Program-made: the position numbers and the translations under genes | The notes under the pieces: generated by a model | Database searches by the model: none | What the model saw: only the letters and a program-made list of their open reading frames with translations | What the model was told of the DNA's origin: nothing | Shown: positions 60,108-61,445 of the stretch, piece after piece | Layout: the number at the start of each line of letters is the position of its first letter | Position numbering within the stretch: position 1 is the stretch's first letter | Source of the DNA: a virus | Length of the DNA: 64,000 bases | Virus record (IMG/VR): IMGVR_UViG_3300029305_002985 | Location: 4,092-68,091 of that record | Reading direction: 5' to 3' (one strand)

Positions 60108-60240
60108 TGGATTGCCGCCTTTGCTTAAAAAAGCACTTTCCGACAAAATTGCGAAAAGTTTCCGAATATTCGTGGAAACTTTGGAAATATTATAATAAAT
60201 CCCGATAAATTATCGGTAAAATATATTAAGGAGGTCTGTT

Positions 60241-60432
60241 ATGACACTAAAAGAAGTTGCTTTGCTTCTTGGTTATAGCGAACAGACTCTGAAAGATCAA
60301 TTTCCCAAGACACAAGAGAACCTAAAGAAAAAAGGAATACTTCTTATGAAATGGGGTCGAGGCAAAGATGCTACTTATGAAGTAGAATATCCTGCTCTTG
60401 ATGAATTAGAATTGATGGAAGACGAGGACTAA
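60241..60432 (+). CDS. small HTH DNA-binding protein
   Basis: TLKEVALLLGYSEQTLKDQ helix-turn-helix. Confidence 0.45.
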   Translation: MTLKEVALLLGYSEQTLKDQFPKTQENLKKKGILLMKWGRGKDATYEVEYPALDELELMEDED

Positions 60433-60436
60433 CACT

Positions 60437-60643
60437 ATGGATACCAAGACAAGACACGAAAATGATTATGTATTTGTTTACAAGAAAAGTTATGCGATGG
60501 AGTTAATCGCAAAAGGGCATATGTTGTTTACTACTATGCCTAATCCGCAAAAGCCAAATCTAATGATGTGGGTATTTATTCGGACCCCGGCATTTACAGC
60601 TGACTTTGATGCATTATTGGGAGGAGGTCGCCGCAATGATTAA
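60437..60643 (+). CDS. hypothetical protein
   Basis: 68-aa ORF. Confidence 0.4.
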   Translation: MDTKTRHENDYVFVYKKSYAMELIAKGHMLFTTMPNPQKPNLMMWVFIRTPAFTADFDALLGGGRRND

Positions 60644-61445
60644 AGAGTTTAAAGATAATGAAATTAGACCTAGTGGTATTATCAATAGAGGTATGTTTGA
60701 GCAAGTTAAAATGCTTTATCAAGACAATCCTGAAATTGGCGGAGAGTTGGCTGTTAGCTTAATGGAATTTATATTGACGGGTGATTTTAGCAGTGATAAC
60801 TTTATGGTTAAGTTCGCTATGGCTAATCATAAAGAGGTAGTTGTGAAGAATCAGGAGAGATATGATGCGAAGAAAGAGGCTAAGCAAGAAGCGATTGAGA
60901 GTAGTTTGAGAGAGATTGCGGAGCTCCTTAACGCAGGAATGAAGCAAGTAGATATTGCGCGGAAGTTGAATATGCAGCCGCCCAATGTTTCCAAAAAAGT
61001 TGCCAAAATTAGGAAAGAATTTCCATGGCTGCTACAGGCGGAAGATTCCAAAAAAGTTTCCACGGAAAGAAATTTGGAAACTTTAGGAAATGTTTCCAAA
61101 GTTGCCAACTTGCCTGAAGAGGCGGAAACTGAGGAAATTGTTGCCGAAAATTTGGAAAGTTCTATTGGATTAGGAAATATTTCCAAAGTTTCCAATGTTG
61201 CGGAAATTTCCGGAAATGTGGAAAGTCAGGAAAGTTCTTTGGAAACTTCTGTTGATTTGGAAATAGTTTCCAAGTTTCCAAGTTTCCAAAATTTCCACCA
61301 TGTAAATTATAATGTAAATGATAATGTAAATGTAAATGGGTCGGGAAACCCTTCGGGTGTTCCCTCCAGTGGGGGTGAACCCCCACACCCCCCAACGGCT
61401 TCGCCGGTAGTGGAGAGTAAGTATAGAAGAAAATTTGAATTCTGA
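60606..61445 (+). CDS. HTH-containing protein with repetitive NVSKV/ISKVSN region
   Basis: VDIARKLNMQPPNVSKKVAKIRKEF HTH; coding region carries GGAAA/TTTCC palindromes. Confidence 0.45.
   Translation: MMHYWEEVAAMIKEFKDNEIRPSGIINRGMFEQVKMLYQDNPEIGGELAVSLMEFILTGDFSSDNFMVKFAMANHKEVVVKNQERYDAKKEAKQEAIESSLREIAELLNAGMKQVDIARKLNMQPPNVSKKVAKIRKEFPWLLQAEDSKKVSTERNLETLGNVSKVANLPEEAETEEIVAENLESSIGLGNISKVSNVAEISGNVESQESSLETSVDLEIVSKFPSFQNFHHVNYNVNDNVNVNGSGNPSGVPSSGGEPPHPPTASPVVESKYRRKFEF

Follow-up and report, generated by a model that had tools for sequence, protein, structure and literature searches.

Replication origins embedded in the gene of their own initiator are already known. In the O protein of phage lambda, the peptide encoded by the origin joins the N-terminal part, which binds DNA, to a protein-docking C-terminal part, and among lambdoid phages the origin repeats and the N-terminal specificity vary together. 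The iterons and AT-rich tract of the lambda and Stx phage origin are located in the middle of gene O, and in lambda the repeats nearest to the AT tract matter most (PMC7466680). Here, we describe a dense cluster of GGAAA/TTTCC repeats in a stretch of 64,000 nucleotides (IMG/VR virus record IMGVR_UViG_3300029305_002985, positions 4,092 to 68,091; hereafter the window) from a large uncultivated gut phage with a genome of about 100-400 kb. The cluster lies within a gene coding for a 269-residue protein (60636-61445), and from its sequence and that of its relatives we propose, with a probability of roughly 0.6, that it is an iteron-type phage replication origin located inside the linker of its own initiator's gene.

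Similar arrangements are described in phages and theta plasmids of Firmicutes. In phage SPP1, oriL lies in gene 38 (G38P), and for the replisome organisers of phages TP901-1, Tuc2009 and A2 the origin – repeats plus an AT stretch – is likewise inside the gene of the binding protein, adjoining genes for a helicase or its loader. The repA gene of plasmid pAD1 contains about two dozen 8-bp repeats. SPP1 uses oriL-dependent theta replication (PMC5737612). In the RepA_N plasmid pSK41 the origin is central in rep, the central-domain linker can be deleted in frame with Rep still supporting replication, and whereas the N-terminal domain of RepA_N proteins binds the origin, the C-terminal domain binds primase (PMC5703833). 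New at the locus described here are the protein family, the short, numerous sites in mixed orientation, a hexamer block conserved in sequence, and an element that slides in and out of the reading frame.

Architecture of the repeat cluster

The cluster lies in a 2.3-kb island of five plus-strand genes (59.6-61.8 kb) with minus-strand genes on both flanks, and the strand switch reported in a first-pass annotation of the window is thus present, but as a local feature only. The parts of the element and of the gene that holds it are as follows, with positions given as those of the window:

60636-61445, plus strand: putative origin-binding protein of 269 residues, with a DUF6291-like domain, a helix-turn-helix (HTH), a disordered linker and a K-F-x-F end
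60987-61297, both orientations: putative iteron array of 25 cores with a consensus of about TTGGAAA / GTTTCCAA, mostly 8-10 bp apart
61266-61297, plus strand: four tandem same-orientation copies, GTTTCCAA GTTTCCAA GTTTCCAAA ATTTCCA, spaced by 8, 8 and 9 bp and abutting the AT block
61300-61338: AT-rich hexamer-periodic block, ATGTAAAT TATA ATGTAAAT GATA ATGTAAAT GTAAAT, a putative DNA-unwinding element
61343-61364: GC hairpin 1, GGGAAACCC ttc GGGTGTTCCC, as a single strand
61369-61386: GC hairpin 2, GTGGGGG tgaa CCCCCAC, as a single strand
61396-61406: GC hairpin 3, GGCttcGCC, as a single strand
61431-61445, plus strand: C-terminal K-F-E-F and stop, with F269 at least 90% conserved and nearly invariant in the family

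The first-pass annotation had singled out the region as a dense palindrome cluster, and a repeat search bears this out. There are 14 GGAAA and 11 TTTCC cores in 60980-61300, and the densest 320-bp segment (60973-61292) holds 25, against at most five in any other segment of the 64 kb and a mean of 0.87. The more than ten GGAAA(N)TTTCC pairs that had been reported stand as a count of half-sites but not as strict palindromes: only five head-to-head pairs conform to GGAAA-N0-3-TTTCC (starting at 61012, 61086, 61173, 61202 and 61259), two pairs are tail-to-tail, and the remaining cores are direct repeats spaced by 8-10 bp. Overall, the cores are 5-8 bp long and point in either direction, and the commonest spacing between them is 8-9 bp.

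The AT block that follows the array has a GC content of 17.5%, within the lowest 2.4% of 40-nt windows. It is translated as VNYNVNDNVNVN in the window, with exclusively A or T at third codon positions. Its motif clusters once in the 64 kb, at 61300-61338, and for this reason we rejected the block as a general phage promoter. Many sites for a sequence-specific protein, an abutting AT block, GC hairpins, presence in a single copy in the window, early transcription and, in some lineages, a small CopG-like regulator gene upstream together make up the anatomy of an iteron origin, and it is this combination that suggests the origin reading.

Conservation among related loci

Homologues of the 269-residue protein are numerous in metagenomes: we collected 71, a profile of the N-terminal domain recovers at least 220, and an exhaustive profile search gives at least 109 clusters at 50% identity (E<=1e-30). 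Scanning IMG/VR for a peptide pattern taken only from the window protein returned nothing, whereas a profile-based scan succeeded; among deposited phage genomes, neither DNA nor protein searches gave a match to the locus, which thus has no annotated relative. We compared the DNA of 22 related loci (L001-L022), 18 of them distinct, and tabulated the architecture for 17.

The same three-part order – an array, then two to four same-orientation copies, then a hexamer-periodic AT block – is found in 17 of the 17 tabulated loci. The terminal same-orientation run has at least three copies in 14 of them, is mostly spaced by 8-9 bp, and abuts the AT block. The AT block itself is of the (AATGWA)n type or otherwise hexamer-periodic in these loci (and non-coding in six), and in most of them it is (AATGTA/AATGAT)n, almost the sequence found in the window, even where protein identity is about 35-40%, the level to which identity of the N-terminal domain drops among the loci. 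Of the 16 loci searched for a GC hairpin, 15 have one after the AT block; in L020-L022 it was read directly from the sequence. Folding of 13 regions predicts one or more hairpins with stems of at least 4 bp in 12 of them, and in seven of these none of 200 shuffled sequences folds equally well; for the hairpin region of the window (61343-61406), folding gives z = -2.2.

The array, in contrast to its position, is specific to the lineage. Equivalents are found in the same place in 16 other distinct loci, with 10-34 sites over 100-500 bp and at least seven types of motif, and the recognition helix of the HTH changes in step with the array motif across the lineages:

TTGGAAA: window, L001, L003, L006 and L010; helix QPPN/AVSKK
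GGAATATTC: L004 and L005; helix xQS(N/T)VSK(K/R)
AAAATCCG: L007 and L008; helix PRSTLNDK / STSTLGSR
CTTGTACAAG: L009; helix SQQTVSNR
TTTACAAA and variants: L014, L018 and L020-22; helix TQQ(I/T)VSYR
AAAATCTAAA: L013; helix NEKTVSYR
ATGTCAAG: L017; helix SRQTVNSR
TACCAA: L012

The lineage motif is also nearly confined to the array, which contains all 13 copies of AAATCCG in L008 and 11 of 12 in L007. Loss or shuffling of the repeats in relatives that keep the protein was named in the first-pass annotation as the observation that would count against a functional site; we find the opposite, with place and architecture retained and the motif shifting together with the HTH. Of the functions that had been offered there, an origin is the one favoured by the comparative evidence of conserved order, motif-HTH co-variation and constraint at the DNA level.

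Two further observations concern the related contigs. Larger non-coding arrays, spanning 450-500 bp with at least 30 motif copies, are present in L018 (2046-2480) and L020 (3489-3985). The ends of the contigs have no consistent relation to the element and are therefore uninformative about pac or cos sites.

Coding and non-coding versions of the element

The repetitive NVSKV/ISKVSN peptide noted at first pass is indeed encoded by the array, whose core is read in all three frames, as E-[TSI], [VI]-S, G-N and F-P. This raises the question of whether the repeat exists at the protein level only, with the DNA repeats a passive result of slippage during replication or of a peptide that is itself repetitive. 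Translation of the region in the window, and a frame that stays open to the conserved C-terminus, are what such an explanation predicts. However, the reading frame runs through the whole element in 11 of the tabulated loci, and in the other six a shorter gene leaves the element non-coding, so that the description of the cluster as embedded in coding sequence is correct for the window but is not an essential property. In L013/L019, L020 and L022 a short gene (162-167 residues) terminates in an aromatic-x-F end and the whole element follows immediately after the stop codon as non-coding DNA, with no open reading frame (ORF) of 50 or more codons in the element region of L013. In L009, L014-16, L018 and L021 a stop codon falls inside the array. 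The short forms of the protein end in NFVF, PWNF, KFNF, AFHF, GYVF or EFYF.

Conservation by codon position also speaks against a protein-level repeat. Between the window and L001, identities at positions 1/2/3 are 0.85/0.93/0.63 in the N-terminal domain and 0.89/0.85/0.86 in the array, where overall identity is 87%; between the window and L003 they are 0.79/0.86/0.58 and 0.78/0.66/0.80, respectively. The N-terminal domain thus has the usual protein-coding pattern of conservation and the array does not. The TTAGGAAAT motif of L001 and its relatives falls in another register and so creates an in-frame TAG, after which the frame is open for 117 more codons to K-F-E-F; this accounts for four 'truncated' homologues of 152 residues (P0003, P0008, P0010 and P0017).

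Moreover, all three frames and both orientations of the motif are translated, the region is predicted to be disordered, and the encoded peptides are wholly different between lineages while the DNA architecture is kept. The existence of non-coding versions excludes a protein-only repeat, to which we assign a negligible probability. Lineage-specific motifs, conserved architecture, optional coding, a flat codon profile and reading in three frames, seen across 18 related metagenomic loci of which 16 are distinct, show instead that the cluster is a cis-acting DNA element and the peptide a tolerated by-product.

The 269-residue protein

The ORF as first called begins with TTG at 60606, but the true start is almost certainly the ATG at 60636, because MIKEF is conserved in all homologues, a ribosome-binding site (GGGAGGAGG) is present, and the stop codon of the upstream gene is overlapped by 8 nt. 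The protein consists of an N-terminal helical DUF6291-like domain (residues ~1-90), a long helix, an HTH (residues ~91-132), confirming the one reported in the first-pass annotation, and a disordered linker (137-247). AlphaFold2 confidence (predicted local distance difference test) is about 90 for residues 1-135 and below 50 for 137-247, and these disordered residues coincide exactly with the stretch whose codons make up the array, AT block and hairpins. The C-terminal K-F-x-F is a putative protein-docking tail.

The match to DUF6291 (PF19808) is 20.8 bits (E 4e-4) for the window protein, below the cut-off of 27.2, but 17 of 47 family members match at E<=0.01 and many homologues carry a precomputed PF19808 match; a literature search found no mention of DUF6291/PF19808. 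The HTH is of the tri-helical LuxR/GerE/sigma-70 region 4 type, with Sigma70_r4_2 matching 26 of the 47 members (best E 9e-7). Local Foldseek matches to the DNA-binding domains of NarL, LiaR, DosR and RhlR have root-mean-square deviations of 0.4-2.6 A and a probability of 0.9, with global E >0.1, and a PDB profile search together with Foldseek gave only LuxR/MarR/DeoR-type HTH matches. Neither the window protein nor any of the 47 family members matches Phage_rep_O in Pfam (E<=0.01-0.1), PHROGs and NCBIfam likewise give no such match, and the 269-residue protein has no match to Phage_rep_org_N, RepA_N or small-terminase families.

There is, in addition, a weak likeness to ParB-type proteins that is confined to the HTH (RepB E 0.04, ParB PDB E 0.06). 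This, together with a resemblance of the same kind to KorB, would fit a partition or genome-organising site, in which a centromere-like array is bound by a ParB/KorB-like HTH protein, and plasmid centromeres can indeed be arrays of 7-11-bp repeats in mixed orientation, as in the omega sites of pSM19035. But no ParA/ParM/TubZ-like partner is encoded in the island or in the relatives, the genome resembles that of a large virulent phage, and a conserved AT block and hairpins have no role at a centromere. The partition site put forward at first pass thus finds no support, and we regard it as very improbable.

Comparison with described origins

The locus resembles the lambda origin in having binding repeats followed by an AT-rich tract inside a putative initiator gene (60987-61338 in the ORF 60636-61445), a resemblance of architecture only. 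We also count as shared the prominence of the repeats nearest to the AT tract, an origin-encoded linker between DNA-binding and putative docking parts, and the joint variation of repeats and DNA-binding specificity. Unlike lambda, where four to six iterons of about 19 bp have internal dyad symmetry, the cores of the window number about 25, measure 5-8 bp and recur every 8-10 bp in either orientation. The protein is unrelated to lambda O, with no Phage_rep_O match, the AT block is a hexamer repeat with a sequence conserved across lineages, GC hairpins follow it, and the element is non-coding in some relatives.

The closest parallel in plasmids is to the RepA_N theta plasmids of Firmicutes (pSK41, pAD1, pLS32), in which origin-like repeats are also central in the gene and encode a linker. 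A dispensable linker, as in RepA_N, is consistent with the predicted disorder of residues 137-247 and with the fact that translation ends before the corresponding DNA in L013, L020 and L022 and part-way through it in L009, L014, L018 and L021. Nonetheless, the window protein has no RepA_N domain; its HTH is a tri-helical LuxR/sigma-4-type domain placed after a helical DUF6291-like domain and not a winged helix, its C-terminal part is just a short F-x-F tail, and it belongs to a phage genome of ~100-400 kb rather than to a plasmid.

In contrast to SPP1 and the lactococcal and Lactobacillus phages, the helicase and primase genes of the window are ~53-56 kb away on the other strand, and the protein has no Phage_rep_org_N/DnaD-like match. 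Iteron plasmids (F RepE, R6K pi, pSC101/P1 RepA) likewise have multiple initiator sites at the origin, and in them an inverted repeat of the same motif at the operon's promoter region serves for autorepression; the window and L001 have a palindrome of this kind at 60158-60179. They differ in that the window protein has no Rep_3 fold or sequence, its sites are much shorter and more numerous, and the upstream palindrome is restricted to the closest relatives.

Replication or transcription

The most serious rival to an origin is an activator-dependent promoter, or transcriptional control more generally. The HTH protein would then be an activator or repressor, the array its operator or upstream-activating sites, the AT block a promoter (with -10-like GATAAT / TAAAT) for the downstream gene or genes, and the hairpins a 5'-untranslated region or terminator. 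A LuxR/GerE/sigma-4 HTH is typical of transcription factors, several sources label the homologues 'response regulator transcription factor', and the two to four same-orientation sites keep a constant spacing from the AT block, as expected of such a promoter; so too are a gene that always follows the element, a T-run hairpin downstream in L009 and L020, and a same-motif upstream palindrome (window and L001) that fits autoregulation. Yet the 10-34 sites in 100-500 bp are far above the number at any known promoter, a -10 element needs no five to seven tandem hexamers, and the AT-block motif occurs as a cluster only once in the 64 kb. A promoter and hairpins within the regulator's own ORF would be odd in those loci where the element is coding, and a promoter scan of the plus strand found no promoter-like site in 61250-61450. 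We consider transcriptional control unlikely.

If the element is an origin, the array would be bound by the 269-residue protein and replication would start at the element, and the following series of events can be envisaged. Host RNA polymerase would transcribe the plus-strand island early, from a promoter at 59593. The HTH of the 269-residue protein would bind the ~25 cores at 60987-61297 and form a multimeric nucleoprotein complex, which the last four same-orientation sites (61266-61297) would set against the hexamer block (61300-61338), leading to its melting. The GC hairpins (61343-61406) could bound the resulting bubble or act as a priming or loading signal. A DnaB-like helicase and primase would then be recruited, maybe through the C-terminal K-F-x-F tail or a 68-residue protein encoded upstream, such a route of helicase loading being a conjecture. 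The NVSK/ISKVSN peptide would be a by-product, a disordered linker tolerating whatever the DNA element requires.

Several points weigh against replication as the function. The AT block might act as a promoter of a specialised kind, the hairpin located 3' of the AT block in L009 and L020 has a T-run and resembles an ordinary terminator, and part of the 'hairpin module' may be transcriptional. Sequence and fold searches detect no homology of the protein to lambda O, RepA_N, Rep_3, DnaD-like proteins or replisome organisers. Only the window and L001 have an upstream operator that carries the array motif; none is present upstream of the gene in L003-L009. GC skew, proposed in the first-pass annotation as a means of locating the origin, is uninformative, because it follows gene orientation: negative from 1-58 kb, positive on the 2.3-kb island, and negative again. 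Finally, large lytic phages often begin replication from transcripts or by recombination, without a dedicated initiator, and the lack of a recognised initiator among the other window genes is for this reason weak support for assigning that role to the 269-residue protein.

It is also possible, if doubtful, that the locus represents a new class of initiator and origin with two separately evolving parts, in which the DUF6291-like domain reads (AATGWA)n, possibly in single-stranded form, and the fast-evolving HTH reads the lineage-specific iterons. By analogy, such a class would be the phage counterpart of the bacterial module of DnaA boxes and DnaA-trio unwinding elements, with an element free to move between positions inside and outside the initiator's reading frame. 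In-frame TAGs made by the motif would be tolerated, TAG being a sense codon in these phages.

Should the element prove to be an origin, it would give a first handle on how replication starts in widespread uncultivated gut phages (~100-400 kb, tRNA-rich and with TAG as sense) and assign a function to DUF6291. The at least seven matched pairs of recognition helix and motif would be useful for studying or engineering DNA-binding specificity. It would also be an unusually clear case of a cis element that imposes its sequence on a protein, may be coding, half-coding or non-coding, and can force a stop-type codon into the frame. In phage metagenomes, arrays of this kind account for odd 'repetitive hypothetical proteins' and for gene calls that are cut short.

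The plus-strand island

The remaining features of the island and its immediate surroundings are:

59593-59621, plus strand: sigma-70 consensus promoter TTGACA-17-TATAAT, with 12/12 matches, heading the island
59655-60107, plus strand: first island gene, 150 residues, with no family match
60137-60191: operator-like site 5' of the 63-residue gene, with TTTCC at 60137, a palindrome at 60158-60179 and GGAAA at 60183
60241-60432, plus strand: 63-residue protein with a weak N-terminal HTH (HTH_17/AraC-like)
60437-60643, plus strand: conserved partner protein of 68 residues, its stop codon overlapping the next start by 8 nt (translational coupling)
61457-61822, plus strand: last island gene, 121 residues, with a coiled-coil C-terminus, following the family gene
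62150-62174: palindromic intrinsic terminator, bidirectional, closing the island and a convergent minus-strand gene

With a consensus promoter at 59593, the entire element should be transcribed early, by the RNA polymerase of the host, and a promoter with at most one mismatch to the consensus heads the island in eight related loci. Where flanks are available, gene order is conserved: a gene of ~150 residues, an optional small HTH or ribbon-helix-helix (RHH) regulator, a gene of 58-68 residues that overlaps the next start, the family gene, and a plus-strand gene (94-141 residues where called). The first position is held by a gene of 146-162 residues in L001 and L003-L006. In ten loci with gene calls (L001, L003-L006, L008 and L020-L022 among them), the 58-68-residue gene runs into the start of the family gene. 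The 68-residue protein has homologues by sequence among the relatives but no family or PDB match. Because a small RHH/HTH regulator precedes the family gene and an early consensus promoter heads the island, the whole resembles a replicon-like operon.

Homologues of the 63-residue protein are present in L001, L004 and L005 and absent from L003 and L006, and in L008, L021 and L022 its position is taken by small RHH (CopG-like), DUF6290 or RepB-RCR_reg regulators (Pfam; RHH_1). We rejected the 63-residue HTH protein as the array binder, since L003 and L006 retain GGAAA arrays without this gene.

The inverted repeat upstream of the 63-residue gene is real and perfect, GTTTCC-GAATATTCGT-GGAAAC with a 10-nt spacer, but it lies at 60158-60179, nine bases to the right of the position first reported (60149-60170). 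The 19 nt at 60173-60191 are a perfect reverse complement of array positions 61176-61194, and the operator-like site is near-invariant in L001 although its flanks diverge. The promoter scan found no plus-strand promoter-like site at the palindrome. The autoregulated operator suggested in the first-pass annotation is plausible for this upstream palindrome only, and as a site with the array motif is found here just in the window and L001, it probably adds autoregulation in the window's own sub-lineage alone.

The neighbouring genes also bear on a packaging function, in which the cluster would be a pac site inside a small-terminase-like gene, as in P22 gene 3, SPP1 gene 1 and P1 pacA. Pac sites often lie within the small-terminase gene and can consist of short repeats, a small terminase has an HTH, a helix for oligomerisation and a C-terminal tail for binding the large subunit, an arrangement that the domain order of the 269-residue protein loosely matches, and in such large phages the small terminase is often unannotated. 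There is, however, no neighbour of the size of a large terminase, all genes within 3-6 kb coding for fewer than 300 residues in the loci with gene calls, and the island has an early host-type promoter and is placed amid early and replication genes. With no small-terminase family match for the protein, and with an AT-rich unwinding block and hairpins that are no feature of pac sites, packaging is an outside chance.

Between the last island gene and the terminator there are ~330 bp of non-coding DNA (61823-62150) with no significant repeats or Rfam match, and an Rfam search of 59-64 kb gave sub-threshold chance matches only.

Phage context

The window genome looks like that of a large virulent phage. 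It encodes a Dda-like helicase, RecJ, Sak4, an NAD-dependent ligase, both topoisomerase II subunits and a sigma factor, in addition to a primase and a DnaB-like helicase, and no recognised initiator is found among its genes. Matches of topoisomerase II have at most 41% identity. The two replication genes to which the proposed mechanism refers are:

4991-6103: primase
6807-8348: DnaB-like helicase

There are 31 tRNA genes in the window, one of which has the anticodon CUA (amber suppressor; 22643-22736, minus strand). It scores 55.5 bits against the Rfam tRNA model and is labelled 'Pyl' by ARAGORN, the inserted amino acid being uncertain because the variable arm is ~24 nt. The other 30 are all on the minus strand at 38366-46789 and 49292-50766 and cover most amino acids; one odd call (45390-45464) has a two-base anticodon.

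The sequence indicates that TAG is a sense codon in this phage. The minus-strand frame at 52784-53671 has six in-frame TAGs and, with TAG translated, gives a 295-residue GIY-YIG homing endonuclease (Pfam E 2e-11, the match spanning four TAGs). Frames at 26541-27329, 35531-36187 and 12328-13563, all on the minus strand, lengthen if TAG is read through. Many island genes of the relatives have in-frame TAGs, and one source already translates TAG as Q (P0069/L009). The TAG-recoded phages of the phAss-1 type (PMC10607447) were considered and set aside: they are similar in size and tRNA content, but nothing ties them to this locus.

Two GIY-YIG-type homing endonuclease genes are located amid replication and early genes, at 12328-13212 and 52784-53671, both on the minus strand. 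A 498-residue protein encoded at 36733-38229 (minus strand), adjoining the tRNA array, matches PHROG 850 'RNA-binding protein' (E 3e-126); together with an RNA ligase-like gene at 27592-28746 it may form a module for RNA repair or tRNA maintenance. Near the right end of the window, the adjacent minus-strand genes at 63450-63668 and 63665-63937 encode small zinc-ribbon proteins that look like tandem paralogues, the product of the first having a Lar-like restriction alleviation match (E 3e-5) just under the cut-off.

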